Assembly (NCBI RefSeq): GCF_000025925.1
Contig: NC_014033.1
Coordinates: 1,710,001 to 1,742,000 of the forward strand
Source of the DNA: Xylanibacter ruminicola 23
GTDB lineage: Bacteria > Bacteroidota > Bacteroidia > Bacteroidales > Bacteroidaceae
Length of the DNA stretch: 32,000 nt
Direction: 5' to 3'
Shown here: one piece after another, positions 714-29,037 of the stretch
How positions within the stretch are numbered: the first letter of the stretch is position 1
Layout of the letters: each line of letters opens with the position of its first letter
Notes under the pieces: model-generated
Database searches by the model: none
What the model saw: only the letters and a program-made list of their open reading frames with translations
Told to the model about the DNA's origin: nothing
Translations under genes and position numbers: made by a program

Positions 714-742
714 TCAACGATAATTTGGCTGATTATACATGT

Positions 743-6212: not shown

Positions 6213-6241
6213 ATTTAATTGCTATTTATTCATTTAAGGTG

Positions 6242-6249
6242 CAAAATTA
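6242..6249 (-). promoter_or_regulatory. -7 promoter box (TAATTTTG on the minus strand) for aspS
   Basis: The rc of caaaatta (6242-6249) is TAATTTTG. It lies 30 nt upstream of the aspS ATG. Confidence 0.45.
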
Positions 6250-6314
6250 CATAAAAAATTGATAATAGACAAACATATTTCTTAATTCTTCGTGATTAAT
6301 TCATATTTTTATAG

Positions 6315-6322
6315 TAACTTTG
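6315..6322 (+). promoter_or_regulatory. -7 promoter box TAACTTTG for the DUF1573 gene
   Basis: TAACTTTG at 6315-6322, 30 nt upstream of the ATG at 6353. Confidence 0.45.
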
Positions 6323-6352
6323 CACTGATTTAATCATTTAAACGACAAAAAG

Positions 6353-6739
6353 ATGAAAAAGATTGCATTTATAGCATTGATGCTGATTTGCGGATTGACA
6401 GCCGCATTGGCACAGAAACCTGCAGAAATCAAGTTCGATAAACTGACACATGATTTCGGAAGTTTCTCTGAGAAAAGTCCTGTTGTTACTTACACCTTCA
6501 CCTATACCAACGTAGGCGAGCAGCCATTGGTTATCAATCAGGCTGTGGCCAGCTGTGGCTGCACCGTACCCGAGTACACCAAGGCTCCTATCAAGCCAGG
6601 CGAGAAAGGCGAAATCAAGGTAACCTATAACGGCGCAGGCAAGTTCCCCGGCCATTTCAAGAAGTCGATCACTATCCGCACCAATGGTGTAGTTGAGATG
6701 ACCCGCCTCTATATTGAGGGAGAAATGACGGAAAACTAA
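6353..6739 (+). CDS. DUF1573 domain-containing secreted protein (128 aa)
   Basis: Signal peptide MKKIAFIALMLICGLTAALAQ. The hallmark F.YTN.G..PL.I....ASCGCT.P...K.PI.PGE.G.I.V.Y pattern of DUF1573 is present. Confidence 0.8.
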   Translation: MKKIAFIALMLICGLTAALAQKPAEIKFDKLTHDFGSFSEKSPVVTYTFTYTNVGEQPLVINQAVASCGCTVPEYTKAPIKPGEKGEIKVTYNGAGKFPGHFKKSITIRTNGVVEMTRLYIEGEMTEN

Positions 6740-7914
6740 AAGCCGTAAGAGAATCCGATAGAGCTATACTCCTTGAACTGGAGGTAACCCAAGTCGTCGT
6801 CCTTCGTACCTGTATCGTCGAAACGAGGGAAGAAGAACAGGTTAGCTGAGATATACTTTGATACACGCAGAGCGAAAGTGTTTTCCCACTCAATCTCTGT
6901 ACGCTTATACGATGTGAATGCATAGAGGCGCGACTTCCATGTGATCACATCGTTTATTTTCCATGTCACATCAGCAGTGAGCTGCGAACCGAAATCAACC
7001 AGCGAATGACGACCTTCCTTCAAACCATAGCTGGTGGCAAGGTCTAAACGATCAACATAACGGTAGTTGATAGCCAATGGCGACAGGTTGACGGTACCCG
7101 ACCATTTCTTATCCTTGGTAGCCAGTTTATAATCCATACCAAGACCGAAGTTGAGGTTGAATGGCGACATAAAATCGGAATAGACATTACGATCGTTTGA
7201 CTTCAAACCCTGTGTAAACTGGCTATAAGCCAGAACCTGCAAGGTATAGTACCAATTCTTGGCAGCCTGCAAGCCGACCTTACTGGTGAGACGAATCAGG
7301 TCCTCATTCGACTTGAACTTATGAATCGAGTCAGTACGTGAACGCAGGAAACCTAGTTTCATCTCCAACTTATTATCCCACTTCCATTTGTTACGGTTAT
7401 CGTAGTTGGCCTCTAAGGTCAGCGAACCCACCATCGAGTAGTTACTTTCACCGCCCTTATACCAGTTACCACTTACATAGTTCTGCATAAACTGCAGATA
7501 GCCATCACCTTTCTTTGTCCAGAAATCGGGTTTCTGAACCAGAATGGTAGTAGGCACATCGTCGGGGGTATCGATAACAGGACTTTCAACCTTTTCAACC
7601 AGCTTTACCTGGTTCTTAATGGGCTGATCCACATCCTTACGAATATTACCGGTTTGCTGAAGTTCCGACTCGGTGGTATTCACCAGATCAGGACGGTTCA
7701 GATAAATATGCAACAAGGCTTCGTCAATAGCATCAGCCACAGGGTCCTGACCAGCCGAATCGGGCTGGATTGAAAGTGATTTGTTAGCCACATTGTGGTA
7801 GAAAGTGACTGGTGCAAACAAACGAAAATAGCGTCCGTCTAATGTATCTTTTGGTTGAGCAGCAGAGGCGCTAAGCGTCCAAAATGCTGCGAATAATAAT
7901 GCAACTTTTCTCAT
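6736..7914 (-). CDS. outer-membrane beta-barrel-like protein, DUF3078-like (392 aa)
   Basis: It has a signal peptide (MRKVALLFAAFWTLSASAAQ), alternating beta-strand patterning, a C-terminal aromatic residue (..IGFSYGF), and an NWYKGGESNYS motif that I associate with DUF3078. The family name is from memory and has not been searched. Confidence 0.6.
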   Translation of the reverse strand: MRKVALLFAAFWTLSASAAQPKDTLDGRYFRLFAPVTFYHNVANKSLSIQPDSAGQDPVADAIDEALLHIYLNRPDLVNTTESELQQTGNIRKDVDQPIKNQVKLVEKVESPVIDTPDDVPTTILVQKPDFWTKKGDGYLQFMQNYVSGNWYKGGESNYSMVGSLTLEANYDNRNKWKWDNKLEMKLGFLRSRTDSIHKFKSNEDLIRLTSKVGLQAAKNWYYTLQVLAYSQFTQGLKSNDRNVYSDFMSPFNLNFGLGMDYKLATKDKKWSGTVNLSPLAINYRYVDRLDLATSYGLKEGRHSLVDFGSQLTADVTWKINDVITWKSRLYAFTSYKRTEIEWENTFALRVSKYISANLFFFPRFDDTGTKDDDLGYLQFKEYSSIGFSYGF

Positions 7915-7922
7915 ATCTGGTG

Positions 7923-7930
7923 CAAAGATA
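7923..7930 (-). promoter_or_regulatory. possible -7 box (TATCTTTG on the minus strand) only 8 nt from the DUF3078-like ATG
   Basis: The rc of caaagata (7923-7930) is TATCTTTG. This spacing would give a nearly leaderless mRNA, so either the mRNA is near-leaderless or this is not the functional box. Confidence 0.3.
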
Positions 7931-7973
7931 CAATTTTTTGCCTATAGTATGCATTCTTTTCGCATTTTTTTCG

Positions 7974-7981
7974 TAATTTTG
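7974..7981 (+). promoter_or_regulatory. -7 promoter box TAATTTTG for yidC
   Basis: TAATTTTG at 7974-7981, 42 nt upstream of the ATG at 8024. Confidence 0.45.
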
Positions 7982-8023
7982 CACCTTGATTTACGCGTAC
8001 ATTAATAAAAAAGCAAAATAGAA

Positions 8024-9913
8024 ATGAATAAAGACACTATTATCGGCTTCGTCCTCATTGCGCTGGTGCTTATCGGCTTCAGCTGGTACAACCAGCCTTC
8101 GCAGGAGGAAATGGAAGCTGCGAGAAAACAAGACAGCATTGCTACAGTGATGCAACAGGATGCCGCCAAGAAGCAGAAAGCAGAAGCGGCTGCACGTAAA
8201 GCACAGGCTGCAGCAGCTGCTCAGGGTGACACAACAGCATTGTTCTATGCCGCACTGAACGGCAAGAACCAGCCCGTTGTTCTGAAGAACGACAAGGTTG
8301 AGCTGACCTTCAACACAAAAGGTGGTACACTTGCTAAAGCAGTGATTAAGAATTTCGAGAATCTGAACGACCAGATGGGTGTAACCCTGTTCGACGAGAA
8401 CACCCAGCAGATGAACTTTATGTTGGCTGGTAAGTCGGAGAACATCATCACCAAGGACCTGTTCTTCACTCCATCAAACGTTACCGATTCTACCCTCACC
8501 ATGACAGCTCTGGCTGGCAATGGTGGTAGCATCGAATTCAACTACGTCCTGGGTAAAGACTACATGCTGCACTTCAACATGAAGGCCAATGGCCTGCAGG
8601 GCATGTTTGCTCCTAACTATCAGGAGATGAGCATTGAGTGGACCGACTTGGCACGTCAGCAGGAGAAAGGTTTTACTTTTGAGAACCGTTATACTTCGGT
8701 TACCTATAAGGAGAAGAATGGTGGTACCGACTATCTGAGCGAGACATCTGAAAAGATTGACGAGAATATTGATGAGGCTTTGGACTGGGTGGCTTTCAAG
8801 AACCAGTTCTTCTCAGCTGCTCTGATTGCTAAGGATGAGTTTGCAGCCAATTCACTGCTTACCAGCATTCCTCAGCAGAAGGGTTCAGGCTACCTGAAGC
8901 AGTTTAATGCTAAACTGAAGACAGCCTTCGACCCCACAGGTGCTAAGGCTACTGAGTTCGAGATGTATATCGGTCCTAACGACTTCCGTTTGATTAAGGA
9001 CGTGGAGCAGCAGAGTGCATTCGGTAAGGACCTCGACCTGGAGCAGTTAGTAAACCTGGGTTGGTGGCTGGTACGCTGGATTAACCGCTGGTTTACCATT
9101 TACGTATTCGACTGGCTCACCTCATGGGGCTTCTCAATGGGTATCGTACTGATTCTGATTACCTTGCTACTCAAGGTCATCACCTTCCCAATGGTGAAGA
9201 AGAGCTACATGTCATCTGCCAAGATGCGTGTGCTGAAGCCAAAACTCGACGAGGCTACCAAGCAGTATGATAAACCCGAGGATCAGATGAAGAAACAGCA
9301 GGCCATGATGCAGTTATACTCACAGTATGGCGTATCACCTCTGGGTGGCTGTCTGCCAATGCTCATCCAGTTCCCAATCTGGATGGCTATGTTCTTCTTC
9401 GTACCTAACGCTATCCAGTTGCGTCGCGAGTCGTTCCTGTGGATCAGCGACCTTTCTACTTACGATCCAATCATCGAATGGGGCACTCAGATCTGGGGAA
9501 TCGGCGATCACTTGTCGCTTACCTGTATCCTGTTCTGTGTAGCCAACGTGCTTTATAGCTATATGACTATGCGCCAGCAGCGCGACCAGATGGTTGGTCA
9601 GCAGGCTGAGCAGATGAAGATGATGCAGTGGATGATGTACTTGATGCCAGTAATGTTCTTCTTCATGTTCAACGATTACTCATCAGGTTTGAACTTCTAC
9701 TACTTTATCTCACTGTTCTTCTCGGCTGCCATCATGTGGACACTCCGCAAGACTACCAACGACGAGAAACTGCTCGCCATCCTGGAGGCTAAGTACAAGG
9801 AGAACAAGAACAATCCTCAGAAGAAGACTTCTGGTCTGGCAGCCCGTCTGGAGGCTATGCAGAAGCAGGCAGAGGAACTGCAGAAACAGAGAATGAACCA
9901 ACAAAAAAGATAA
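8024..9913 (+). CDS. yidC: membrane protein insertase YidC (long Bacteroidota form, 629 aa)
   Basis: An N-terminal TM segment is followed by a large periplasmic domain. The C-terminal 60-kDa insertase core is present (ITLLLKVITFPMVKKSYMSSAKMRVLKPKLDE...GVSPLGGCLPMLIQFPIWMAMFFF), followed by a basic tail. Confidence 0.93.
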   Translation: MNKDTIIGFVLIALVLIGFSWYNQPSQEEMEAARKQDSIATVMQQDAAKKQKAEAAARKAQAAAAAQGDTTALFYAALNGKNQPVVLKNDKVELTFNTKGGTLAKAVIKNFENLNDQMGVTLFDENTQQMNFMLAGKSENIITKDLFFTPSNVTDSTLTMTALAGNGGSIEFNYVLGKDYMLHFNMKANGLQGMFAPNYQEMSIEWTDLARQQEKGFTFENRYTSVTYKEKNGGTDYLSETSEKIDENIDEALDWVAFKNQFFSAALIAKDEFAANSLLTSIPQQKGSGYLKQFNAKLKTAFDPTGAKATEFEMYIGPNDFRLIKDVEQQSAFGKDLDLEQLVNLGWWLVRWINRWFTIYVFDWLTSWGFSMGIVLILITLLLKVITFPMVKKSYMSSAKMRVLKPKLDEATKQYDKPEDQMKKQQAMMQLYSQYGVSPLGGCLPMLIQFPIWMAMFFFVPNAIQLRRESFLWISDLSTYDPIIEWGTQIWGIGDHLSLTCILFCVANVLYSYMTMRQQRDQMVGQQAEQMKMMQWMMYLMPVMFFFMFNDYSSGLNFYYFISLFFSAAIMWTLRKTTNDEKLLAILEAKYKENKNNPQKKTSGLAARLEAMQKQAEELQKQRMNQQKR

Positions 9914-9918
9914 ACTTT

Positions 9919-12087
9919 ATGAAGAAATTTAGAATTCCAGTTTTACTATTGGGAATGATGCTTTTAGCTAATCCCGTTAAAGCAGCAGAAAACGTGAAGA
10001 TAGGGAAACAGAATATCAAGCTTGCCAGCAACCTGATGACACCCGAGGCACTTTGGGCCATGGGTCGTGTAGGTGCTGCCGAGGCTTCGGCCGATGGTAA
10101 GCAGATTGTTTACCAGATTGGCTACTACAGCGTAAAGGCTAATAAGAGTCAGCAGAAGATTGCCATCATCAACGCTGATGGTACAGGCAACACCACTCTG
10201 ACCACTGGTAGCAAGAGCGAGACAGATCCTACCTGGTATAACGGAAAGATTGCTTTCCTGACAGGTGGACAGCTGTGGACTATGAACCCCGACGGTTCTG
10301 ACCGCAAGCAGATTTCGAACACCTCGAAACCTATCGAGGGTTTCAAGTTCTCGCCTGATGGCAAGAAGGTGATTCTGCTCCACTCACTCGAGTTCAACGA
10401 AATTATCAAGAAGAATCCCGACGATCTGCCAAAGGCTACTGGCCGCTTGGTAACCGATCTGATGTATCGCCACTGGGATCACTATGTAGAGAGCATCCAG
10501 CACCCCTTTGTTGCTGATGTAACAGAGGATGGCATCAAGGATGGTATCGACATTCTGGAGGGCGAGCCCTACGAGTGCCCCATGGAGCCATTCGGTGGTA
10601 TCGAGCAGTTAGACTGGGCACCCGACTCTAAGTCGATTGCCTATACCTGTCGTAAGAAGACCGGTCTGGAGTATTCTATCTCTACCGACTCAGATATCTA
10701 TTTATATATAATAGGTACGCGCGAGACCAAGAACCTTTGCAAGCCTGCAGATTACAAGGCACCTAAGGTTAATCCTACCAAGACCCTGAAGTATCAGAGT
10801 GTGAATGCCAAGGAGAACCTGAAGAATAACGTAGGTTACGATCAGAATCCTAAGTTCTCGCCTGATGGCAAGTATATTGCCTGGACTTCGATGGAGCGTG
10901 ATGGATACGAGGCTGATCGCCTGCGCCTGTGTGTTTACAACCTGGCTACTGGTGAGAAGAAATACGTAACCGAGAGCTTTGATTCAAGTGTTGAGGACTT
11001 TGTTTGGAGCGATTCTAAGGACGCGATGATTTACTTTATCGGTGTTTGGCACGCTACCATCAACCTCTACGCCGTAAACTGGAAGGGTGAACTGAAGCAG
11101 TTGACCAACACTTGGGACGACTTCGGACAGATTCACCTGATGAACAATGGAAAGCAGCTGCTGATGGAGCGTCATAACTACACATCACCTGCCGATCTGT
11201 ATATTGTTACTCCAAACTTCAAGAAGCCTGAGAAGACACAGACCAAGCAGCTTACTTTCGAGAACAAGCACATTCTTGATCAGCTGGCTAAGCCAACCGT
11301 ACAGCAGCGTTGGGTAAAGACCAGCGATGGCAAGCAGATGCTGGTTTGGGTAATTCTGCCACCAAACTTCGACGAGAATAAGAAGTACCCCACCCTGCTG
11401 TTCTGCGAGGGCGGTCCTCAGAGTCCTGTATCACAGTTCTGGAGCTACCGTTGGAACTTCATGATCATGGCTTCGCAGGGTTATGTAGTAGTAGCACCTA
11501 ACCGTCGCGGTCTGCCCGGATTCGGTCAGGAGTGGCTCGAGGAGATCTCTGGCGACTGGACTGGTCAGTGCATGAAGGACTATCTGGCAGCTATCGACGA
11601 CGCAGCCAACAATCTGCCATACGTAGATAAGGATAAACTGGGTGCCGTAGGTGCATCGTTCGGTGGATTCTCGGTTTACTATCTGGCAGGTCATCACGAT
11701 AAGCGTTTCAAGGCCTTCATCTCTCACGATGGTGCCTTTAACCTGGAGGCCATGTACACTGAGACCGAGGAGAACTGGTTCTCTAACTTCGAGTACGACG
11801 ATGCCTACTGGAACAAGGATCGTACCGCTAATGCCGACAAGACCTATAAGAACTCACCTCATCAGTTTGTTGACAAGTGGGATACACCTATCCTTGTGAT
11901 TCACGGCGAGATGGACTACCGTATCAACGCCACTCAGGGTATGTCGGCCTTTAATGCAGCACGCATGAAGGGTATTCCAGCCGAGCTGCTCATCTTCCCC
12001 GATGAGAACCACTGGGTACTGAAACCACAGAACGGTGTACTGTGGCAGCGCACCTTCTTTAACTGGTTGGACCGCTGGTTGAAATAA
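9919..12087 (+). CDS. S9 family serine peptidase (prolyl oligopeptidase/dipeptidyl-peptidase clan), secreted
   Basis: It has a signal peptide and PD40/TolB-like propeller repeats (FSPDGKKV, FSPDGKYIAWTS). The catalytic domain carries GASFGG (GxSxGG nucleophile elbow), HGEMDYRI (Asp) and DENHW (His). It starts only 5 nt after yidC. Confidence 0.88.
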   Translation: MKKFRIPVLLLGMMLLANPVKAAENVKIGKQNIKLASNLMTPEALWAMGRVGAAEASADGKQIVYQIGYYSVKANKSQQKIAIINADGTGNTTLTTGSKSETDPTWYNGKIAFLTGGQLWTMNPDGSDRKQISNTSKPIEGFKFSPDGKKVILLHSLEFNEIIKKNPDDLPKATGRLVTDLMYRHWDHYVESIQHPFVADVTEDGIKDGIDILEGEPYECPMEPFGGIEQLDWAPDSKSIAYTCRKKTGLEYSISTDSDIYLYIIGTRETKNLCKPADYKAPKVNPTKTLKYQSVNAKENLKNNVGYDQNPKFSPDGKYIAWTSMERDGYEADRLRLCVYNLATGEKKYVTESFDSSVEDFVWSDSKDAMIYFIGVWHATINLYAVNWKGELKQLTNTWDDFGQIHLMNNGKQLLMERHNYTSPADLYIVTPNFKKPEKTQTKQLTFENKHILDQLAKPTVQQRWVKTSDGKQMLVWVILPPNFDENKKYPTLLFCEGGPQSPVSQFWSYRWNFMIMASQGYVVVAPNRRGLPGFGQEWLEEISGDWTGQCMKDYLAAIDDAANNLPYVDKDKLGAVGASFGGFSVYYLAGHHDKRFKAFISHDGAFNLEAMYTETEENWFSNFEYDDAYWNKDRTANADKTYKNSPHQFVDKWDTPILVIHGEMDYRINATQGMSAFNAARMKGIPAELLIFPDENHWVLKPQNGVLWQRTFFNWLDRWLK

Positions 12088-12099
12088 GCAAGCAATATA

Positions 12100-12158
12100 T
12101 TCCCACGTTGGGAACAATTCATTCCCAGTGTGGGAATAATATGTTCCCAACGTGGGAA
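12100..12158. promoter_or_regulatory. three 15-bp palindromes TTCCCA-N3-TGGGAA at an exact 22-bp phase (12100-12114, 12122-12136, 12144-12158)
   Basis: Read directly from the sequence: TTCCCAcgtTGGGAA, TTCCCAgtgTGGGAA and TTCCCAacgTGGGAA. They sit between the S9 peptidase stop (12087) and the MFS start (12193). No TAnnTTTG box is present in this gap. Confidence 0.6.
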
Positions 12159-12192
12159 TAAATACGAAAAGTAATTAAATAGAAACAAAATA

Positions 12193-13815
12193 ATGACTCA
12201 AGCAATTCAAAAGACCCTTCGCGACAGCGCTGGAATGCGCTGGACTGCGCTTTTACTGCTGGCACTGGCCATGTTCTGTGCCTACATCTTTATGGACATT
12301 CTCTCACCTATCAAGGACCTGATGCAGGAGACCCGTGGTTGGGACTCAACAGCATTCGGAACCATGCAGGGTTCAGAGGTATTCCTTAACGTGTTCGTGT
12401 TCTTCCTCATCTTCGCAGGTATCATCCTCGACAAGATGGGCGTTCGTTTCACCGCTGTGCTTTCGGCTGCTGTAATGGTGGTTGGTGCCTGCGTAAAATG
12501 GTATGCCGTAAGCGAGAGCTTCATGGGAACCGGACTCGAGACTTGGTTTAACAACCATCTTAATTATATCCCCGTATTCGACGAACTGGGTGTATCACCA
12601 TTCTATGCTGGCATGCCTGCTTCGGCTAAGTTTGCTGCCTGCGGCTTCATGATCTTTGGTTGTGGCTGTGAGATGGCCGGTATCACCGTAAGTCGTGGTA
12701 TTGTAAAATGGTTCAAGGGTCGTGAGATGGCTTTGGCTATGGGTTCAGAGATGGCACTCGCCCGTCTGGGTGTTGCCACCTGTATGATCTTCTCGCCTTT
12801 CTTTGCCCGTTTGGGTGGTGAGGTTTCAGTAAGCCGTTCAGTAGCCTTCGGTGTGGTACTGATGTGTATCGCTCTCATCATGACCATCGTATATTTCTTC
12901 ATGGACCAGAAGCTGGATGCACAGACAGGTGAGGCTGAGGAGAAAGACGATCCATTTAAGATCAGCGACCTGGGTAAGATTCTTACCGATGCTGGTTTCT
13001 GGATTGTAGCTCTGCTTTGCGTGCTTTACTACTCAGCCATCTTCCCCTTCCAGAAGTATGCTGTAAACATGCTGCAGTGTAACCTGACTCTTACAGCCCC
13101 CGATGCTAACTCATTCTGGGCTCAGCCCGATGTTACCATCGTTCAGTACATCATCATGCTGATTGTGGCTGCTGCAGGTTTCGCCTCAAACTTCCAGAAG
13201 AAGGCCAACCTGAAGTACGGTCTGCTGGCTCTCTCAATCTTAGCACTCATTACCTACTGTTATATGGGCTTCATGCGTCAGTCAGCCGAGAGTATCTTTG
13301 CAGTATTCCCACTGCTGGCTGTACTCATCACACCTATCCTTGGTAGCTATCTCGACCACCACGGTAAGGCAGCCACCATGCTGGTACTGGGTTCAATCCT
13401 GCTGATTGCCTGTCACCTCACCTTCGCCTTCGTTCTGCCAATGTTCAAGGGCAATGCTGTTGGTGGTATCATCATCGCTTACACCACTATTCTGGTGCTG
13501 GGTGCTTCGTTCTCACTGGTACCTGCAAGCCTCTGGCCTTCAGTGCCCAAGCTGGTTGATGCCAAGGTAATCGGTTCGGCCTACGCTCTGATTTTCTGGA
13601 TTCAGAACATCGGTTTGTGGTTGTTCCCACTGCTGATTGGTAAGGTACTCGACCAGACAAACCCTGGCGTAACCGATCCTACACAGTTCGATTACACAGC
13701 ACCTCTGGTTATGCTGGCTTCGCTTGGTGTAGCAGCCCTCATCCTGGGCTTCGTGCTCAAGGTGGTAGATAAGAAGAAAGGTATTGGTCTTGAACTTCCA
13801 AACATCACAGAATAA
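12193..13815 (+). CDS. MFS transporter, MFSD1-like, long form (540 aa)
   Basis: A multi-TM protein. The blocks VKWFKGREMALAMGSEMALARLG, FWIVALLCVLYYSAIFPF and SLWPSVPKLVDAKVIGSAYALIFWIQNIG parallel human MFSD1 blocks that I recall (VSWFKGKELNLVFGLQLSMARIG; ALWPMVAFVVPEHQLGTAYGFMQSIQNLG). It is a paralogue of 15257-16612. Confidence 0.85.
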   Translation: MTQAIQKTLRDSAGMRWTALLLLALAMFCAYIFMDILSPIKDLMQETRGWDSTAFGTMQGSEVFLNVFVFFLIFAGIILDKMGVRFTAVLSAAVMVVGACVKWYAVSESFMGTGLETWFNNHLNYIPVFDELGVSPFYAGMPASAKFAACGFMIFGCGCEMAGITVSRGIVKWFKGREMALAMGSEMALARLGVATCMIFSPFFARLGGEVSVSRSVAFGVVLMCIALIMTIVYFFMDQKLDAQTGEAEEKDDPFKISDLGKILTDAGFWIVALLCVLYYSAIFPFQKYAVNMLQCNLTLTAPDANSFWAQPDVTIVQYIIMLIVAAAGFASNFQKKANLKYGLLALSILALITYCYMGFMRQSAESIFAVFPLLAVLITPILGSYLDHHGKAATMLVLGSILLIACHLTFAFVLPMFKGNAVGGIIIAYTTILVLGASFSLVPASLWPSVPKLVDAKVIGSAYALIFWIQNIGLWLFPLLIGKVLDQTNPGVTDPTQFDYTAPLVMLASLGVAALILGFVLKVVDKKKGIGLELPNITE

Positions 13816-13817
13816 TT

Positions 13818-15281
13818 ATGAAAATAGGTTTCGATAACGACAAGTATCTCAAGATTCAGTCTGAGCATATCAAGGAGCGCATCGCTCAGTTCGACGGCAA
13901 GCTCTACATGGAGTTAGGTGGCAAACTGTTCGACGACCACCATGCATCGCGTGTTCTGCCAGGTTTCAAGCCCGACAGTAAGCTGCGCATGCTGGGACAG
14001 TTGCGCGACAGCATCGAGATTGTCATCGTGGTTAGCGCCGAGGACATCGAGAAGAACAAGGTACGTGCCGACCTCGGCATTACCTACGACGAGGATGTAC
14101 TGCGTTTGCGCGATGAGTTCATGGGCCGCAACTTCATGGTGGGCAGTGTGGTTATTACCCACTACAACGGTCAGCATGCTGCCGATCAGTTCCGTCATCG
14201 TCTGGAGCGCGAGGGCATCAAATCATACATCCACTACCCCATCGACGGTTACCCACACAACGTGGAGCTGATTGCCAGCGACGAAGGCTTTGGAAAGAAC
14301 GATTACGTAGAGACCTCACGTCCACTCGTTATCGTAACAGCTCCTGGTCCTGGTAGCGGTAAGATGGCTACCTGTCTGAGTCAGCTCTACAACGAGAACA
14401 AGCGTGGCATCCGTGCCGGATATGCAAAGTTCGAGACCTTCCCCGTATGGAACCTGCCTTTGAAGCATCCTGTAAACATCGCCTACGAAGCTGCAACTGC
14501 CGACCTGAACGATGTGAACATGATCGATCCCTTCCACCTGGAGGCATACAACAAGACTGCCGTGAACTACAATCGCGACATCGAAATCTTCCCCGTGCTT
14601 AATGCTCTCTTCGAGGGCATCTATGGCGAGAATCCTTACAAGTCGCCCACCGATATGGGTGTGAACATGATTGGTTTCTGCATCAGCGACGATGAGATTT
14701 GCTGCAAGGCTTCGAAGGATGAGATCATCCGCCGTTTCTACGATGCAACCAACAAGATGGCCGACGGTGCTGATAACGAGAGCGAGGTAAACAAGATACG
14801 TATGCTCTTTAATCAGGCCAAGATTACTACCGCCTTCCGTCCGGTTACCACAGCTGCCTACGAGAAGAAGATCGAGACAGGTCTGCAGGCTGCTGCTATC
14901 GAGCTTGAGGATGGTACTATCATCACCGCCAAGTCGTCGCCACTGTTAGGTTGCAGTGCCGCTCTGCTTATCAATGCCATGAAATATCTGGCAGAGATAA
15001 ATCACGAGGAGAAGCTGATTCCACAGAGTCTGATTGAACCTGTACAGAAGACCAAGATTGAATACTTAGGTGGTAAGAACCCCCGCCTGCATACCGACGA
15101 GGTACTGGTAGCCCTGAGCGTACTCTCTAACGACGACGAGAAATGTCGCAAAGCCTTGGAGCAGTTGCCCAAGCTGCGCGGCTGTCAGGTACACACCACC
15201 GTTATGCTGAGCGAGGTTGACCGCAAGATCTTCAAGAAATTAGGTTGTGGATTGACATGCGACCCAGTAAAGAAAAAATAA
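13818..15281 (+). CDS. DUF1846 / UPF0371 family protein (487 aa), function unknown
   Basis: The N-terminus MKIGFDNDKYLKIQSEHIKERI....KLYMELGGKLFDDHHASRVLPGFKPDSKL and the ~490 aa length fit the UPF0371/DUF1846 family as I remember it. It starts 2 nt after MFS-1 and overlaps MFS-2 by 25 nt. Confidence 0.75.
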   Translation: MKIGFDNDKYLKIQSEHIKERIAQFDGKLYMELGGKLFDDHHASRVLPGFKPDSKLRMLGQLRDSIEIVIVVSAEDIEKNKVRADLGITYDEDVLRLRDEFMGRNFMVGSVVITHYNGQHAADQFRHRLEREGIKSYIHYPIDGYPHNVELIASDEGFGKNDYVETSRPLVIVTAPGPGSGKMATCLSQLYNENKRGIRAGYAKFETFPVWNLPLKHPVNIAYEAATADLNDVNMIDPFHLEAYNKTAVNYNRDIEIFPVLNALFEGIYGENPYKSPTDMGVNMIGFCISDDEICCKASKDEIIRRFYDATNKMADGADNESEVNKIRMLFNQAKITTAFRPVTTAAYEKKIETGLQAAAIELEDGTIITAKSSPLLGCSAALLINAMKYLAEINHEEKLIPQSLIEPVQKTKIEYLGGKNPRLHTDEVLVALSVLSNDDEKCRKALEQLPKLRGCQVHTTVMLSEVDRKIFKKLGCGLTCDPVKKK

Positions 15282-16612
15282 ATAACTCGCCTTTTGCGAG
15301 ATGGATAGTGCTCATCATCGTGGCAACCGCCATGATGATGGGCTATTTCGTTAACGACGTTATGTCGCCACTCGAAACGCTCCTTGAACTGCCCAAGGAG
15401 CAGGGAGGCTTAGGTTGGACACCATCCGACTATGGTTTCTTCTCAGGCGCAGGCAGTTTTATCAATGTATTTCTGTTGATGCTCTTCTTCTCGGGATTGA
15501 TTCTCGACAAGATGGGTATCCGTTTTACAGGCACGTTAGCCTGTTCGCTGATGGCCTTAGGCACACTGATAAAGTATTATGCCGTAACGGCCGAATTCGG
15601 TAACGAGCCCATAGCATTTCTCGATTATCAGCTGCCCGCCTCAGCCGTTTGGGCATCCTTGGGATTTGCTATATTCGGTGTAGGCTACGAGATGACAGGT
15701 ATCAGTGTATCAAAAGCCATGGTACGATGGTTCACTGGTCACGAGTTAGCCTTGGCCATGGGCATCCAGTTGGCCATGGCCCGTTTGGGCACCGCTGCAG
15801 CCCTGAGCATCTCAGCCCCCATCGCCCGCCACTACACACTCTCCATGCCACTATTAATATCACTGGCATTCTTAATCATCGGTCTGTTGGCATTCCTGGT
15901 ATTCTGCGTAATGGACCGCAAGTTAGATGATAGTGGACAAACAACAGAGGATAACGCTGATAACACGCAGTATGAGGAGCAATTCCATTTCTCTGATATC
16001 CTCGTCACCCTTCGTAATCCCGGTTTCTGGCTCATTACACTGTTCTGCGTATTGTTCTATTCGGCCGTATCTCCATTCCTCAAGTTCTCAACCAAACTGA
16101 TGGTGATGAAATATGGTGTTGATCCCGATATCGCAGGATTCTTCTCATCGATTGCACCCTTCGGTACCATTCTGATGACACCATTATTCGGACTGATTTA
16201 CGACCGCTATGGCAAAGGCGTAACCTTAGTAATTACAGGTGCACTTATGCTTACAGCCGTTCATTTCGGTTTCTCACTGCCTATTCACAGCAGCACCATC
16301 GCTATCGCTTTGATGGTAACACTCAGCATTGGCTACTCGTTGGCACCTGCCGCCTTATGGCCTTGCGTACCAAAGATTATCCCACTGAAGTGTTTAGGCA
16401 CCGCTTACTCCATGATTTTCTTTATCCAGAACTTCGGACGTGCTGTGATTCCCATGTGTGTAGGACGAGCTAATGAAACTGATCCTACCTACACTACCTC
16501 GATGCTGATTTTTGGATTTACGGCATTAGGCGCAGCTGTAACAGCGATTGCCATACTGGTAATCGACAAGAAAAAGAACTACGGGTTGCAACTGCCGAAT
16601 ATTAAAAAATAA
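15257..16612 (+). CDS. MFS transporter, MFSD1-like, short form (~451 aa)
   Basis: ORF 15245-16612 begins at a TTG; I prefer the ATG at 15257. It is clearly paralogous to 12193-13815, sharing DKMG(V/I)RFT, W(F)(K/T)G.E(M/L)ALAMG, LWP.VPK and the C-terminal DKKK..GL.LPNI. Confidence 0.85.
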   Translation: MRPSKEKINNSPFARWIVLIIVATAMMMGYFVNDVMSPLETLLELPKEQGGLGWTPSDYGFFSGAGSFINVFLLMLFFSGLILDKMGIRFTGTLACSLMALGTLIKYYAVTAEFGNEPIAFLDYQLPASAVWASLGFAIFGVGYEMTGISVSKAMVRWFTGHELALAMGIQLAMARLGTAAALSISAPIARHYTLSMPLLISLAFLIIGLLAFLVFCVMDRKLDDSGQTTEDNADNTQYEEQFHFSDILVTLRNPGFWLITLFCVLFYSAVSPFLKFSTKLMVMKYGVDPDIAGFFSSIAPFGTILMTPLFGLIYDRYGKGVTLVITGALMLTAVHFGFSLPIHSSTIAIALMVTLSIGYSLAPAALWPCVPKIIPLKCLGTAYSMIFFIQNFGRAVIPMCVGRANETDPTYTTSMLIFGFTALGAAVTAIAILVIDKKKNYGLQLPNIKK

Positions 16613-17537
16613 GTCGTACAACTAATGGCAGGTGGTCGCTGAAACCACCCTGGTAGCGAGGACCGATATACGTTCTTCGTGGTCGATACCCGCCATATCT
16701 GGCATCCTCTTCTAATAAGAACTTCGGTGCATGAATAAAAGCGGTATCCACCTTATTATTAATAGAGGAACTGCCTAATATATGATCGATACTCTCCCAC
16801 TCGCCTTTGTAACGATAGGTGCCACGAACACCATTGGCACCCTTGGCATGTTTGGTCAGGTTCACCAAACCATGTTGCTCGTACTGTAACAGACTTGGAC
16901 TAAGGGCACCATCATTAAAGTCGCCCGCAACCATCAGTTTAGCGTCAGGAGAGATGGCTCGGATAGAATCTATCGATTGGCAAAGTCGATCTGCCACAGC
17001 CAGTCTGAATGGGCGACTATGTTTCTCGCCACCAAACTTACTGGGCTGATGCACCACAAATACATGGAGTGTATCACCAGAAACAGTTTCGCCACAGGCA
17101 TACAGTATATCTCGTGTAACACGCATGCCCTCGACAGGATTCACACGAATAGCATAACTACGGATGGGTGCAAACGAAGCTGGCGCATAAAGGAGCGCCA
17201 CATCAATGCCGCGCTCATCGGGCGAAGAAGTCATCAGATACTGATAGCCAGCATGACGCAACAGCGAGCGACGCGTGAAATCACGCATCACCGAATCGTT
17301 TTCAACCTCACATAATGCCACCAAATCAGGGATACCATTACCTTCATCCGAACACGAAAGCAATTCCTGAGCCACCATATTCAGTTTATGCCAATAACGT
17401 CTCGACGTCCAATGTCTGTCCGATTCTGGAAGAAATTCAGTATCCTGCTTACCAGCATCGTGAGTATAGTCGAACAAGTTTTCGCAGTTCAACTCTACAA
17501 ATGTCAAGAAGCCCGATAACAGCAGACTGAGTATCAT
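16602..17537 (-). CDS. endonuclease/exonuclease/phosphatase (EEP) family protein
   Basis: 311 aa. It has the N-terminal LNCENLFD motif and the C-terminal SDHLPLVVRL motif characteristic of the EEP/DNase I-like fold. Its ATG overlaps the nhaC-family stop (ATGA). Confidence 0.8.
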   Translation of the reverse strand: MILSLLLSGFLTFVELNCENLFDYTHDAGKQDTEFLPESDRHWTSRRYWHKLNMVAQELLSCSDEGNGIPDLVALCEVENDSVMRDFTRRSLLRHAGYQYLMTSSPDERGIDVALLYAPASFAPIRSYAIRVNPVEGMRVTRDILYACGETVSGDTLHVFVVHQPSKFGGEKHSRPFRLAVADRLCQSIDSIRAISPDAKLMVAGDFNDGALSPSLLQYEQHGLVNLTKHAKGANGVRGTYRYKGEWESIDHILGSSSINNKVDTAFIHAPKFLLEEDARYGGYRPRRTYIGPRYQGGFSDHLPLVVRLIF

Positions 17538-18931
17538 TTACGCTTGATTTTCCAGCCAAGCCCTGCCACAAGGATACTCGTGATAGGCGACAGGATATTG
17601 AAGAAACAATAAGGCAGATAAGTGAGCGTAGCCACACCAAGCACGGTGCTCTGGGTAAGTCCGCAAGTGTTCCAAGGCACCAGTACCGAGGTTACCGTTG
17701 CACCATCTTCGCAACTGCGACTCAGCAAACGGGCCTCGTAGCCACCTTTCTTATATACATCCTTAAACATCGAACTGGCCAGCATAATCGACAGGTACTG
17801 ATCGGCCATCGCAATATTGCAGAACAGCGAGGTGCCAACCGTCGAAGCTACCAACGAAGCTGTACCACGCACCCAGCGCAGCACCACCTTCATCAGGTCG
17901 GCTAACTGTCCGGTTGCCGTCAGCGCGCCACCGAAAGTCTGTGCGCAAATAATCAGCCAGATAGTCGGCATCATGCCCCCCATACCACTGGTCTGCACCA
18001 GATCGTTCAGCATCGGCACACCCGTCTCAATATTCGTACTGCCGTAACATACCTGCATCATACCTTTGTAAGATGACAGGAAACCATCGTGACCCGAAAT
18101 CTGTCGGATCAGGTCGGGCTGTACCAACAAGCCTACCACGGCTGCCAACAGAATAGCCAGGAACAGTACCACCATCGATGGCCAACGGCGCGCAATCATC
18201 ACACCTGTCAGTACAGGTACTATCAACAACCAAGGCGAAATCACAAACGTATGCTGCAAGCCGTCCATAAACTCCTGCACATTGCCATGACCCGATACGT
18301 TCATCATCAGTCCTGCAATCAGGAAGATAGAAAGCGATACCAAGAACGAAGGCACCGTGGTATAAAGCATATAACGGATATGCGTAAACAACGGCGTACC
18401 CGATACACTCGAAGCCAACACAGTAGTATCGCTCAATGGCGACAACTTATCACCAAAATAAGCACCTGTGATGATAGAACCGGCAATCCAGCCATCATCA
18501 AAACCATGTGCCTTACCGATACCCATCAGCGCAACACCGATGGTAGCAACGGTAGTCCACGACGAACCGATCATCAAACTCACCAATGCACACAGCACAC
18601 TACTGCTCACCAAGAACACCTCGGGGCGGATAATCTGCATGCCGTAATAGATCATCGTAGGCACAATGCCCGATACCATCCAGGTTCCACCGATGGCACC
18701 GATCAACAAAAGGATAATGATAGCCGGTGTACAACTGGCTATCTTATCCGTTATCTCTTTTTCCAGATTCTCCCATTCCAGTCGTTTGGAGAAATGGCCT
18801 ATTAACACACTAACTGCCGATGCCGCCAACAACGACACCTGACTGGCACCATCTAAAGTTGCGTTGCCAAAAACGGCAACGCAACATGTAATGAGTACTA
18901 TCAGTACTATGAATGGGATAAATGAAATCAT
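17534..18931 (-). CDS. Na+/H+ antiporter NhaC family protein
   Basis: 465 aa, polytopic. The conserved NhaC block is present: LLLIGAIGGTWMVSGIVPTMIYYGMQIIRP...GSSWTTVATIGVALMGIG...GAYFGDKLSPLSDTT. Confidence 0.85.
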   Translation of the reverse strand: MISFIPFIVLIVLITCCVAVFGNATLDGASQVSLLAASAVSVLIGHFSKRLEWENLEKEITDKIASCTPAIIILLLIGAIGGTWMVSGIVPTMIYYGMQIIRPEVFLVSSSVLCALVSLMIGSSWTTVATIGVALMGIGKAHGFDDGWIAGSIITGAYFGDKLSPLSDTTVLASSVSGTPLFTHIRYMLYTTVPSFLVSLSIFLIAGLMMNVSGHGNVQEFMDGLQHTFVISPWLLIVPVLTGVMIARRWPSMVVLFLAILLAAVVGLLVQPDLIRQISGHDGFLSSYKGMMQVCYGSTNIETGVPMLNDLVQTSGMGGMMPTIWLIICAQTFGGALTATGQLADLMKVVLRWVRGTASLVASTVGTSLFCNIAMADQYLSIMLASSMFKDVYKKGGYEARLLSRSCEDGATVTSVLVPWNTCGLTQSTVLGVATLTYLPYCFFNILSPITSILVAGLGWKIKRK

Positions 18932-20464
18932 TTAGCAAACTTTTTCGAGACGCTTCATCATAGCGAACATGAATACTGCAGCTACCAAGCAAACGCCCAG
19001 GAACACACTCCAGCAGATCCAGAGGGGTACTGCACCCCACAGCAATCCACCTACTACAACAAGCTGATTACCGATGGCAGTAGCAACAAACCAGCCACCC
19101 ATCATCATACCCTTGTACTTTGGAGGTGCAACCTTTGATACAAATGAGATACCCATTGGGCTGAGCAGCAGCTCACCGAATGTCAGCACCAGATAAACCA
19201 TAATCAGCAGGTTTGGTGTAACATCAGCTACATGAACAGCAACAGGGTTACCATCAGCACCTACCTCGGTCTGAGGCATTGGCAGGCCGAATGATGAGAA
19301 GGCCATCAATGCATAAGCGATAGCGGCCACAATCATACCATAAGCAATCTTACGGGGAGCAGATGGTTCATTGCCCTTAGCTGCCAACGAACCGAAAATA
19401 GCCATCGATACTGGTGTGAGGGCTACTACATAGAAGGGATTGAACTGCTGGAAGATAGGAGCAGAAACAGTTACTGTACCCTCAGCATCATACTGAATAA
19501 ACAGGAAAGCCAGTGCCAACACAATCACACCCAGTGAGATAGCCTTTGCTTTTGGAGTCTTCGACTGGAACAGTGAGAACGAAGCATACACAATGAATAC
19601 GATGGCTACCAGGTTCCATACGTCGAAACACATGGCCTGCAGGCCCTGAGCACTCTGAGCAGTAAACTCATCGGCAAAGTATGTGAGCGACAAACCGTTC
19701 TGGTGGAAGGCCATCCAGAAGAAAATTACCACAGCAAATACCAGGCACAGAGCCACAATACGCTGCTTGGTTTCCTCCTTGGTGAGCTCAGGCTCGGTGC
19801 TTGCAGCATCAGCCTTAGCAGCCTTCTTGGTTCCACCCTCAGTATGACGGAAGGTTGAACGGAACATGTAATAGATGGCTATCGAGAGTACCAGCGATGC
19901 GCATGCCACTGCAAACGAGAAGTGGTAAGCATCGTTAGATGAATAACCAAGCGCGGTCTCGGCATACTCCTTGATACGGATAGCAGCAGTAGGTGCAAAC
20001 AGGGCACCGATGTTGATAGCCATGTAGAAGATAGAGAAACCGGCATCGCGCTTATCCTTATACTGCGGATCGTTATACAAGTCACCCACCATTACCTGCA
20101 GGTTACCCTTGAACAAACCGGTACCAAAACCAATCAGCAACAGGGCAGCCAGCATCACTACCAGCGCTACGGTATCGCCACCAAGGGGCACCGACAGCAA
20201 CAGATAGCCGGCAAACATAATGATGATACCTGTGGTAACCATCTTTCCGAAACCGAACTTATCAGCCAGGATACCACCAATCAGGGGCAGGAAGTAAACC
20301 AGCATAAGGAACGAACTGTAGATTGTGCCTGCCATAGCTGGCGACAATCCGTAATTAGCTCTCAAGAAAAGAGCAAACACGGCAAGCATGGTATAATAAC
20401 CGAAGCGCTCGCCTGTGTTGGCCAGGGCCAACGCAAATAAACCTTTGGGTTGATTTTCGAACAT
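18932..20464 (-). CDS. proton-dependent oligopeptide transporter (POT/PTR2 family, DtpT-like)
   Basis: 510 aa. PTR2 signatures are present: GERFGYYTM near the N-terminus, LIGGILADKFGFGKMV, and FYMAINIGALFAP. Its stop codon directly abuts the next start (TAA ATG). Confidence 0.88.
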   Translation of the reverse strand: MFENQPKGLFALALANTGERFGYYTMLAVFALFLRANYGLSPAMAGTIYSSFLMLVYFLPLIGGILADKFGFGKMVTTGIIIMFAGYLLLSVPLGGDTVALVVMLAALLLIGFGTGLFKGNLQVMVGDLYNDPQYKDKRDAGFSIFYMAINIGALFAPTAAIRIKEYAETALGYSSNDAYHFSFAVACASLVLSIAIYYMFRSTFRHTEGGTKKAAKADAASTEPELTKEETKQRIVALCLVFAVVIFFWMAFHQNGLSLTYFADEFTAQSAQGLQAMCFDVWNLVAIVFIVYASFSLFQSKTPKAKAISLGVIVLALAFLFIQYDAEGTVTVSAPIFQQFNPFYVVALTPVSMAIFGSLAAKGNEPSAPRKIAYGMIVAAIAYALMAFSSFGLPMPQTEVGADGNPVAVHVADVTPNLLIMVYLVLTFGELLLSPMGISFVSKVAPPKYKGMMMGGWFVATAIGNQLVVVGGLLWGAVPLWICWSVFLGVCLVAAVFMFAMMKRLEKVC

Positions 20465-27593: not shown

Positions 27594-27609
27594 TTGAACA
27601 TTGAACATT
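27594..27609 (+). repeat. heptad array TTGAACA-TTGAACA-TT filling the whole trpB-trpE gap (contains the 13-mer AACATTGAACATT at 27597-27609)
   Basis: Read directly. The array begins right after the trpB stop (27591-27593) and ends at the trpE ATG (27610). Confidence 0.7.
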
Positions 27610-29001: not shown

Positions 29002-29006
29002 TAAGG

Positions 29007-29034: not shown

Positions 29035-29037
29035 GTT

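Follow-up and report, generated by a model that had tools for sequence, protein, structure and literature searches.

A predicted PyrJ-type CTP synthase gene situated between two MFSD1-like carrier genes in rumen Prevotella

The DUF1846/UPF0371 gene that lies between two major facilitator superfamily (MFS) genes in Xylanibacter ruminicola 23 is probably pyrJ, which encodes a predicted CTP synthase. We assign this identification and the history of the locus proposed below, taken jointly, a probability of roughly 0.7. The position of pyrJ between two MFSD1-like genes is a recent rearrangement present in some rumen Prevotella and is not a conserved module. The stretch of DNA analyzed (the window; 32,000 nt, positions 1,710,001 to 1,742,000 of NC_014033.1) combines genes of at least two distinct functions, and its interpretation as a single peptide-salvage module was rejected.

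Results

Organization of the Locus

Four genes in the window, encoding a dpp5-type S9 peptidase, the carrier MfsA, the DUF1846 protein and the carrier MfsB, were arranged head to tail (Table 1). The mfsA stop codon (TAA, 13813–13815) was followed by two nucleotides, tt, and then by the pyrJ ATG at 13818, and the mfsB ATG at 15257 preceded the pyrJ stop codon (15279–15281). An alternative mfsB start, TTG, was present at 15245. The open reading frames and the sequence were in agreement with the original prediction of paralogous MFS genes around a 487-aa DUF1846 gene, separated from it by a 2-nt gap on one side and overlapping it by 25 nt on the other, and this spacing suggests that pyrJ is co-transcribed with mfsA and mfsB. 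The secreted S9 peptidase gene and the POT gene were also found where they had been predicted, the former directly upstream and the latter 2.3 kb downstream of mfsB on the other strand, in a separate convergent gene block. The POT gene product matched PTR2 (Pfam) and TIGR00924 (185 bits, cut-off 130).

Table 1. Features of the locus in window coordinates.
Feature	Position	Strand	Evidence or remark
yidC (membrane protein insertase)	8024–9913	+	Pfam 60KD_IMP and YidC_periplas; synteny
dpp5, predicted periplasmic dipeptidyl-peptidase 5 (S9)	9919–12087	+	NCBIfam equivalog NF053518; Peptidase_S9
TTCCCA-N3-TGGGAA palindrome repeat, dpp5-mfsA spacer	12094–12161	.	Motif count, TRF, RNA fold
mfsA, MFSD1/Pht-family major facilitator, 540 aa	12193–13815	+	MFS_1; PDB 8R8Q
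Insertion inside mfsA, two predicted extra hydrophobic helices	13078–13278 (approximate)	+	Alignment, BLASTP gap, hydropathy
pyrJ (DUF1846/UPF0371), 487 aa	13818–15281	+	PF08903 and PF20921; PRK13663; PDB 7F00, 3BH1
mfsB, predicted 12-TM MFSD1/Pht-family paralogue of mfsA	15257–16612	+	MFS_1; PDB 8R8Q
EEP nuclease	16602–17537		In block with POT gene
NhaC	17534–18931		Same convergent block as POT gene
POT/PTR2 di-/tripeptide:proton symporter	18932–20464	-	PTR2; TIGR00924

Identity of the DUF1846 Gene Product

DUF1846 proteins have a P-loop ATPase-like N-terminal domain. Pfam searches of the pyrJ product identified DUF1846 (PF08903, E 1e-179, aa 3–334) and DUF1846_C (PF20921, E 9e-59, aa 341–486), and the NCBIfam equivalog PRK13663 scored 807 bits (cut-off 631). 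Using phmmer, the protein matched PDB 7F00 (SPD_0310 of Streptococcus pneumoniae) over 482 residues (aa 3–484, E 5e-182) and PDB 3BH1 (DIP2346 of C. diphtheriae, E 1e-176). The window protein shares with SPD_0310 its two-domain architecture, its length, 54% identity from end to end and an invariant P-loop, TAPGPGSGK. It differs in having a Bacteroidota host and a gene placed between two MFS genes in an old pyrG-yidC neighborhood.

The original prediction had regarded DUF1846 as a family with no assigned function, which is outdated, as the SPD_0310 orthologue was named PyrJ, an ammonia-dependent UTP-to-CTP synthase, in a 2024 preprint based on genetics and purified protein (bioRxiv 10.1101/2024.09.24.614635). 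In S. pneumoniae, pyrJ was synthetic-lethal with pyrG and cytidine rescued the loss, and the purified SPD_0310 protein made CTP from UTP with NH4+, not with glutamine (bioRxiv 10.1101/2024.09.24.614635). The same preprint, the only publication of PyrJ activity and for S. pneumoniae only, described the family as mainly from Firmicutes and Actinobacteria and found pyrG to be absent from ~31% of the genomes with pyrJ, a situation that the window resembles in that pyrG is missing from its usual position at yidC. SPD_0310 had earlier been described as a hemin-binding protein (PMC9238395). Based on orthology to the characterized S. pneumoniae enzyme, we infer PyrJ activity in Prevotella. With free ammonia, the predicted enzyme would aminate UTP to CTP in an ATP-dependent reaction, offering an alternative to PyrG, which depends on glutamine.

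The neighbors of pyrJ outside Prevotella provided independent support for this identity. The gene directly adjoined pyrG in one locus (L082), a plasmid-borne NupC-type nucleoside transporter gene in E. faecium and a nucleoside hydrolase gene in Cetobacterium, and a dihydropyrimidinase gene was near it in Vescimonas.

History of the pyrJ Neighborhood

To follow the position of pyrJ, synteny was compared across about 230 loci from genomes and metagenomes (single loci are given as L-numbers), and layouts were counted in 80 rumen Prevotella species. The most common order was yidC-pyrJ-dpp5 (25 of 80 species), followed by the mfsA-pyrJ-mfsB sandwich seen in the window, which was present in 19 species plus four variants (19–23 of 80). 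Another 12 of the 80 had yidC-pyrJ followed by a different gene, and in 13 pyrJ had neither type of neighbor. In the PyrJ tree all Prevotella sequences formed one clade nested within Firmicutes, with the yidC/dpp5 layout on its deeper branches and the sandwich confined to a derived part.

In other Prevotellaceae pyrG lay directly upstream of yidC, the anchor of the neighborhood, and in the older rumen layout the gene directly downstream of it was pyrJ. The order pyrG-yidC-dpp5-mfsA, with no pyrJ, was found in oral taxon 299 and in L099, L212 and L220, and pyrG was likewise at the yidC locus in L095, which also lacked pyrJ. Both synthase genes, pyrG and pyrJ, flanked yidC in L067 and L223–225. 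By comparison, pyrG was absent from the yidC position in 52 of the 53 pyrJ-bearing genome loci that contained yidC, and also in L153. Tandem mfsA-mfsB pairs with no pyrJ were common (~17 metagenome loci), indicating that pyrJ was inserted into a transporter pair that already existed.

Based on these layouts, we propose that the ancestral order in Prevotellaceae was pyrG-yidC-dpp5-mfsA(-mfsB) and that pyrJ would have been acquired once by rumen Prevotella from Firmicutes. Its first position would have been the one between yidC and dpp5, at a locus that in some lineages retains pyrG to this day, with pyrG subsequently being lost from the yidC position. In one derived rumen subclade, to which the window belongs, pyrJ would then have come to lie between mfsA and mfsB.

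This history bears directly on the original prediction, in which the dipeptides would be produced by DPP5 and imported by both MFS proteins, with the DUF1846 protein as a cytoplasmic processing enzyme or regulator. The tight spacing of mfsA, DUF1846 and mfsB in the window, the upstream DPP5 gene, the nearby POT gene and the MFSD1-like character of both carriers fit such a module, and a loose link is conceivable in that peptide catabolism could provide ammonia for PyrJ. However, the published activity of the DUF1846 orthologue, a CTP synthase using UTP, contradicts the model. The recurrent linkage of DUF1846 to MFS or peptidase genes that a neighborhood survey was to reveal was not found in any of 12 loci outside Prevotella (nine from Firmicutes, three from Fusobacteria). 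Within Prevotella pyrJ had at least four contexts, of which the sandwich is derived, and even inside the sandwich clade the spacing around it varied from -25 to +238 nt. We consider this single module very improbable.

The MFSD1-Like Carriers

Both carriers matched MFS_1 (PF07690) in Pfam and were paralogues of one another (32% identity, E 8e-91 by BLASTP). A search of all PDB chains identified MFSD1 (8R8Q) as the sole match of MfsA (E 2e-14) and the sole strong match of MfsB (E 1e-24), with no other MFS structure at E<0.01 for either protein. MfsB had one other, marginal match, a CD47-cytochrome b562 fusion (E 0.003). The blocks WF[KT]GxE[LM] and LWPxVP..LGTAY..IQNxG were present in the MFSD1 alignments and in the family alignment of MfsA and MfsB, as expected from the earlier description of the carriers as MFSD1-like. 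The extra segment ascribed to the longer paralogue was also confirmed. MfsA has 14 hydrophobic segments by hydropathy, and its insertion (aa ~296–362), which is absent from MfsB and from the Bacteroides and Parabacteroides homologues in the alignment, contains hydrophobic stretches at aa 314–332 and 343–361, between TM7 and TM8. MfsB aligned without insertions.

MfsA was strongly conserved among rumen Prevotella (84–100% identity), and homologues of MfsB (45–51% identity) stood alone in Parabacteroides, Bacteroides and Phocaeicola. MFSD1 homologues were very abundant in Prevotella. To our knowledge, bacterial MFSD1 homologues are uncharacterized.

MFSD1, together with GLMP, is a mammalian lysosomal dipeptide uniporter (PDB 8R8Q; PMC11252000, PMC10990142), and the roles of its binding residues have been described, D60, E150 and R181 being critical by mutagenesis (PMC11252000). 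All three of these clamp residues were present in both MfsA and MfsB. Among 92 family members D60 was retained in 96%, E150 in 97% (the remainder having D) and R181 in 100%, and these residues together with Y56 and Y276 were each kept in at least 95%. Of the 14 residues of the MFSD1 cavity, eight were identical in both paralogues (Y56, D60, E150, R181, Y276, W373, Q396 and N397), although W373, Q396 and N397 belonged to the motif used to search for the metagenome set. Four more were identical in one paralogue only (Q176, F280, Y365 and L400 differ in either MfsA or MfsB), and Y59 and Q393 were replaced in the Prevotella carriers.

MFSD1 is thus the only meaningful relative of MfsA and MfsB with a solved structure, and the residues critical by mutagenesis are shared. 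Unlike MFSD1, MfsA and MfsB are predicted to be bacterial inner-membrane proteins, and MfsA has the two additional predicted helices. We know of no partner of the bacterial carriers that resembles GLMP, a glycoprotein of eukaryotic lysosomes.

The dpp5 Gene and the Spacer Upstream of mfsA

DPP5 (MEROPS S9.012) consists of a beta-propeller and an S9 catalytic domain. The gene product upstream of mfsA scored 1048 bits against the DPP5 equivalog NF053518 (cut-off 900) and had Peptidase_S9, PD40 and DPPIV_N domains, the serine motif GASFGG and a hydrophobic, signal-like N-terminus, MKKFRIPVLLLGMMLLANPVKA. DPP5 is a periplasmic enzyme that releases N-terminal dipeptides (PMC8048996).

The position of dpp5 directly upstream of an MFSD1-like carrier gene recurred in oral, gut and rumen Prevotellaceae. 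At 7 of 20 informative metagenome loci, and at ~34 loci from genomes, dpp5 was immediately upstream of an A-type carrier gene, the spacers being mostly 3–60 nt long; the other 13 of these 20 A-type loci from metagenomes lacked the adjacency, as did genomes of the P0242 type. This pairing could be a gene order passed down by descent and devoid of functional meaning, as that of pyrG and yidC probably is.

The dpp5-mfsA spacer of the window contains three 22-bp tandem units (TRF: period 22, 3.1 copies), each with the palindrome TTCCCA-N3-TGGGAA, for which three exact matches were found against 0.08 expected. As RNA, the repeat was predicted to fold into a single long hairpin (dG -42.9 kcal/mol, z -9.0). 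It is a REP-like insertion. A role as a conserved operator was rejected as only 6 of 34 orthologous spacers carry it (7 of 35 including the window); it was found once elsewhere, in L028.

Discussion

What the Carriers May Transport

The conservation of the residues that bind dipeptide ends in MFSD1, together with the recurrence of dpp5 upstream, makes dipeptide import the most likely function of the carriers. As members of the MFSD1/Pht branch, MfsA and MfsB would carry dipeptides, or small zwitterions resembling them, inward across the inner membrane, which is our leading reading of their substrates, though a tentative one. The idea that DPP5 supplies an MFSD1-like carrier therefore retains moderate support: of the peptide module first envisaged, the MFSD1-like carriers, their clamp residues and the recurrent dpp5-carrier adjacency speak for it, and DUF1846 as its enzyme does not stand.

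This arrangement resembles the dipeptide pathway of P. gingivalis, in which periplasmic DPP4/5/7/11 act with an inner-membrane POT. The window encodes a DPP5 with a signal and, at a distance of 2.3 kb, a POT, and the scheme, in which dipeptides are freed in the periplasm and then taken up by an MFS protein, is shared. In contrast to the P. gingivalis POT, the carrier beside dpp5 is of the MFSD1 family and has no POT family signature. POT is the established type of dipeptide importer in Bacteroidetes, with its role shown for P. gingivalis, in which SstT, POT and OPT are the only recognized importers of amino acids and peptides (PMC8048996).

An alternative is that MfsA and MfsB import cytidine or uridine and that PyrJ makes CTP, the juxtaposition in the subclade being adaptive as a pyrimidine-supply operon. 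MFSD1 and the Pht transporters are homologous (PMC6819133), and it is on this published homology that we set MfsA and MfsB beside PhtC and PhtD. The Legionella pneumophila locus tdk-phtC-phtD-deoB, for thymidine salvage, is a precedent in this family for tandem paralogues beside a gene for a pyrimidine-nucleotide enzyme, and phtC restores pyrimidine uptake to nucleoside-transport-deficient E. coli (PMC3920079). In S. pneumoniae cytidine enters mainly through Spd_1425, an MFS protein that also suppresses the loss of pyrG and pyrJ (bioRxiv 10.1101/2024.09.24.614635), and the NupC-type gene beside pyrJ in E. faecium points the same way. In addition, a gene for a CTP synthase, pyrG and later pyrJ, has remained no more than a few kb from mfsA across the Prevotellaceae. 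However, the closeness of pyrG to mfsA comes about by way of yidC and dpp5 and seems incidental. Unlike the Legionella pair, the Prevotella tandem predates pyrJ, is mostly found with no adjacent pyrimidine gene and is otherwise associated with dpp5 instead of genes for nucleoside enzymes. The homologues in Bacteroides and Parabacteroides are beside secG or folC, the retained residues correspond to those with which MFSD1 holds a dipeptide by its amino and carboxyl ends, and mfsA has as its nearest conserved partner the gene of a peptidase that releases dipeptides. Nucleoside import is consequently an unlikely function. It is similarly doubtful that the locus is a rumen-adapted CTP-supply module, in which PyrJ replaced PyrG and shares an operon with two MFSD1/Pht carriers as its suppliers, the imported compounds being either pyrimidine nucleosides, as in Legionella, or peptide nitrogen.

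The carriers might instead move an unrelated small solute, with all the adjacencies (pyrG-yidC, dpp5-mfsA and mfsA-pyrJ-mfsB) being historical accidents kept by short intergenic distances. The heterogeneous, housekeeping neighbors of the family's MFS genes (SecG 6, FolC-type 5, and TPR, thioredoxin-like, PqqD and DUF4831 4 each) are consistent with this, as are the conservation of pyrG-yidC, a pair with no obvious common function, and the identity of only 8 of 14 MFSD1 site residues. It does not sit well with the nearly invariant D60/E150/R181 clamp, nor with L099 and L201, in which an MFSD1-family gene follows dpp5 even though the carriers are very divergent (12 TM, 43–47% identity, compared with 55–73% for dpp5 and yidC). 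We regard such an accident as improbable, and dipeptides or similar zwitterions as the preferred substrates.

Implications

As a function for DUF1846 has already been assigned, the context in the window is not a route to deorphanizing the family. Its value lies in pyrJ having been little documented in Bacteroidota so far. The series pyrG-yidC, pyrG-yidC-pyrJ and yidC-pyrJ has the appearance of a single locus at which an essential enzyme was displaced stepwise by a non-orthologous one. An ammonia-dependent, glutamine-independent CTP synthase would be physiologically sensible in the ammonia-rich rumen, and if pyrG is truly missing genome-wide, PyrJ would be the sole CTP synthase of abundant rumen Prevotella. 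For the carriers, the recurrent position after dpp5 and the conserved dipeptide clamp are grounds for the testable proposal that Bacteroidetes have a second dipeptide importer besides POT.

Gene content of the locus

The gene arrangement described in the original prediction was confirmed by the open reading frames and by the Pfam and NCBIfam identities of their products. Two nucleotides separate the stop of MFS-A from the start of the DUF1846 gene, and the start of MFS-B lies 25 nt ahead of the DUF1846 stop. An Rfam search of the window identified no riboswitch or other RNA family, and ARAGORN found no tRNA genes in it. A scan for sigma-70 promoters and terminators returned fewer promoter-like sites than were found in shuffled sequences; such a scan is unsuited to Bacteroidetes promoters.

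Features of the window, with coordinates, strand and the basis of each assignment
Feature	Position	Strand	Remarks
Low-GC segment	1–725		GC 0.305 versus ~0.48 elsewhere; all ORFs ≤46 aa; upstream of a glycosyltransferase cluster (725–3640)
yidC	8024–9913	+	First of five genes in a row
dpp5 (S9 peptidase, dipeptidyl-peptidase 5)	9919–12087	+	DPP5 equivalog (NCBIfam), 1048 bits versus cut-off 900
Repeat array	12094–12161		A 22-bp unit in three tandem copies, all containing the palindrome TTCCCA-N3-TGGGAA, inside the 105-nt dpp5-mfsA spacer
mfsA (MFS-A)	12193–13815	+	540 aa; MFS_1 (Pfam)
pyrJ (DUF1846 gene)	13818–15281	+	487 aa; DUF1846 N- and C-terminal domains (Pfam); equivalog PRK13663 (NCBIfam), 807 bits versus cut-off 631
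mfsB (MFS-B)	15257–16612	+	451 aa; ATG start, alternative TTG at 15245; MFS_1 (Pfam)
POT peptide transporter	18932–20464	-	Beyond MFS-B, in a convergent block with an EEP nuclease and NhaC
Tryptophan biosynthesis cluster	26388–31494		After uvrA (23180–26020); PALP-type trpB-like gene, trpE, a 187-aa ORF (presumably trpG), trpD and trpC; unrelated to the finding

Identity of the DUF1846 gene as pyrJ

We assigned the DUF1846 gene as pyrJ because its product matched the Streptococcus pneumoniae DUF1846 protein SPD_0310 (PDB 7F00) over the whole length (E 5e-182, 54% identity), with an invariant P-loop, TAPGPGSGK. SPD_0310 is synthetic-lethal with pyrG, the gene of the glutamine-dependent CTP synthase, and cytidine rescues the double defect; once purified, it makes CTP from UTP using ammonia but not glutamine, and was renamed PyrJ (bioRxiv 10.1101/2024.09.24.614635). 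The same study reported that the family occurs mainly in Firmicutes and Actinobacteria, and that approximately 31% of pyrJ-carrying genomes have no pyrG. The pneumococcal protein had earlier been named a hemin-binding protein (PMC9238395), and solved structures of the family already exist. The work on SPD_0310 overturns the earlier view that DUF1846 had no assigned function. The gene in the window adds one more member to an enzyme family that is already known, and its activity in Prevotella is predicted from likeness to the pneumococcal enzyme.

Neighbourhoods of pyrJ

A scan of the genome collection with PyrJ was evaluated for the best 80 matches at species level, all of which were from rumen Prevotellaceae and encoded proteins 86–100% identical to that of the window; the closest were those of Prevotella sp. 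P6B1 and Xylanibacter ruminicola Ga6B6. Among these 80 loci, the order yidC-pyrJ-dpp5, usually with mfsA next, was found in 25 species and the mfsA-pyrJ-mfsB order of the window in 19 species plus four variants. In 12 species yidC and pyrJ were followed by something else, and 13 species had none of these neighbours. Such close spacing as in the window is not general, since in the mfsA-pyrJ-mfsB group the mfsA-to-pyrJ spacer ranged from 1 to 171 nt and the pyrJ-to-mfsB spacer from -25 to +238 nt. Two metagenome-assembled genomes, RUG12981 (L011/L012) and Tb.RUG.460 (L025/L047), each had two pyrJ copies, one between mfsA and mfsB and the other elsewhere, which represent either a real duplication or mixed bins.

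Homologue searches with PyrJ, MFS-A and the PyrG of locus L067 returned relatives of 88–99% identity from Prevotellaceae metagenomes only (88–91% for PyrG), and taxonomic breadth came from plasmid and chromid records, viral contigs and a degenerate-motif scan of metagenomes. The linkage of DUF1846 to MFS or peptidase genes expected of a peptide-salvage module was not found in other phyla: neither type of gene adjoined pyrJ in any of 12 loci outside Prevotella (drawn from Roseburia, E. eligens, Vescimonas, C. butyricum, Cetobacterium, E. faecium, Fusobacterium, Peptoclostridium and three viral-collection contigs). Such an absence is what the original prediction had named as a refutation of its DUF1846 lead. 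Several of the genes found there instead relate to pyrimidines: pyrG directly downstream of pyrJ (L082), an adjoining NupC-type nucleoside transporter gene (E. faecium), an adjoining nucleoside hydrolase gene (Cetobacterium) and a nearby dihydropyrimidinase gene (Vescimonas).

The E. faecium pair is carried by a conjugative plasmid (NZ_CP019972, 4995–7920), so that an alternative CTP synthase is mobile among enterococci. Two IMG/VR contigs classed as viral (L082 and L083) had a pyrJ (68% identical) beside phage-like genes (DnaB-like helicase, recombinase); these are probably the host flanks of prophages.

History of the locus

Several lineages retain the locus without pyrJ. The order pyrG-yidC-dpp5-mfsA was found in Prevotella sp. 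oral taxon 299, metagenome contigs L099 and L212 and the human-gut lineage L220, and Prevotellaceae that lack pyrJ have pyrG immediately upstream of yidC (e.g., L095, 2236–5741). In two further lineages, L067 (3439–8461) and L223–225 (L223, 9001–14056), both synthase genes flank yidC in the order pyrG-yidC-pyrJ-dpp5(-mfsA); the latter lineage is common (78 collection blocks) and has spacers of 16–45 nt. Among the best 80 matches, pyrG was gone from upstream of yidC in 52 of the 53 genome loci in which yidC is accompanied by pyrJ, the window included, as it was in L153. In the 7915–9913 segment of the window, the gap between the DUF3078 gene and yidC is just 110 nt.

In the PyrJ tree the Prevotella proteins formed one clade nested among Firmicutes, beside Roseburia (72% identity). 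The deeper Prevotella branches had pyrJ between yidC and dpp5, and the mfsA-pyrJ-mfsB arrangement was limited to a shallow, derived part of the clade. Approximately 17 metagenome loci had mfsA and mfsB in tandem with no pyrJ between them. The simplest reading of these data is that pyrJ would have been acquired once horizontally and inserted beside yidC, after which pyrG would have been lost from the yidC locus; in one subclade pyrJ would then have moved between the two pre-existing transporter paralogues, and in other lineages elsewhere. The succession from pyrG to pyrJ beside yidC looks as though an essential enzyme had been displaced, step by step, by a non-orthologous one at a single locus.

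The repeat array upstream of mfsA

The palindrome of the array in the dpp5-mfsA spacer had three exact matches versus 0.08 expected by chance, and TRF found the same array. As RNA the array would fold into a single long hairpin (dG -42.9 kcal/mol, z -9). We considered whether it was the operator of an mfsA-pyrJ-mfsB regulon. This was rejected because the array folds as a hairpin, because 28 of the 34 orthologous dpp5-mfsA spacers, that of the closest relative (L002) among them, lack it, and because it occurs in an unrelated spacer, between the AspRS and DUF3078 genes of L028. The array is a REP-like insertion, not a conserved operator, because just six of the 34 spacers (L026 with four copies) and the one unrelated spacer contained it. 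These occurrences suggest a small family of REP-like repeats in rumen Prevotella, and in this strain the array may reduce the read-through that reaches mfsA from dpp5.

The MFSD1-like carriers and their substrate

MFS-A and MFS-B are paralogues (32% identity, E 8e-91). Alignment and hydropathy upheld the extra segment proposed for the longer one, an insertion of approximately 66 residues (aa ~296–362) that places two hydrophobic helices between TM7 and TM8 and brings the hydrophobic segments of MFS-A to 14. The MFSD1-like character of both was likewise supported by searches against all PDB chains, in which MFSD1 (8R8Q) was the sole match of MFS-A (E 2e-14) and the sole strong match of MFS-B (E 1e-24), with none of the many other MFS structures in the PDB reaching E<0.01 for either. 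Both carriers belong to an established branch of transporters and are themselves uncharacterised.

The MFSD1 structure paper named 14 cavity residues, and mutagenesis showed D60, E150 and R181 to be critical for holding the dipeptide (PMC11252000). Mapping these residues through HMMER alignments showed that both carriers keep Y56, D60, E150, R181, Y276, W373, Q396 and N397; Q176, F280, Y365 and L400 are retained in just one of the two, and Y59 and Q393 are substituted. The first five of the shared residues occurred in 96–100% of 92 metagenome family members, which had been collected with a search motif that included none of the five.

The most stable partner of mfsA was dpp5. DPP5 is a periplasmic, dipeptide-releasing enzyme, with Lys-Ala and Ala-Ala among its products. 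The two genes were adjacent in approximately 34 genome loci among the best 80 scan matches, with spacers mostly of 3–60 nt, in 7 of 20 informative A-type metagenome loci, and also in oral and gut Prevotella. The slot after dpp5 can be filled by differing MFSD1-family members: L099 (~5500–6950) and L201 had a very divergent 12-TM gene there, just 43–47% identical to the carriers of the window, although their dpp5 and yidC were 55–73% identical. P. gingivalis takes in nitrogen and carbon chiefly as dipeptides, with POT as their main uptake route (PMC8048996).

Based on the adjacency to dpp5 and the conserved MFSD1 clamp (D60/E150/R181), dipeptide import is our best guess for the substrate, at a probability of slightly under one half. 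The case is not strong, because neighbours across the family were heterogeneous (SecG, FolC-type ligase, TPR, PqqD and DUF4831 genes), the Bacteroides and Parabacteroides homologues stand alone, and gene order conserved within one family can be plain inheritance, as the pyrG-yidC order probably is. Pfam counts of the immediate neighbours of approximately 90 family members showed no recurrent peptidase or nucleoside enzyme except DPP5. A real rival is that the carriers transport pyrimidine nucleosides. MFSD1 shares homology with the Pht carriers of Legionella (PMC6819133), in which phtC and phtD lie in tandem between tdk and deoB and function in thymidine salvage, and phtC restores pyrimidine uptake in E. 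coli (PMC3920079); in the pneumococcus, loss of both CTP synthases is suppressed by an MFS cytidine importer (bioRxiv 10.1101/2024.09.24.614635). Of the peptide-salvage module originally proposed, the pairing of peptidase and carrier gained partial support from the recurrent dpp5-mfsA linkage and the clamp; a part in it for DUF1846, the orthologue of a CTP synthase, is not supported.

Modest follow-up is merited both for the carriers, as a candidate non-POT dipeptide importer, and for the way in which pyrJ took the place of pyrG beside yidC, step by step, in rumen Prevotella.
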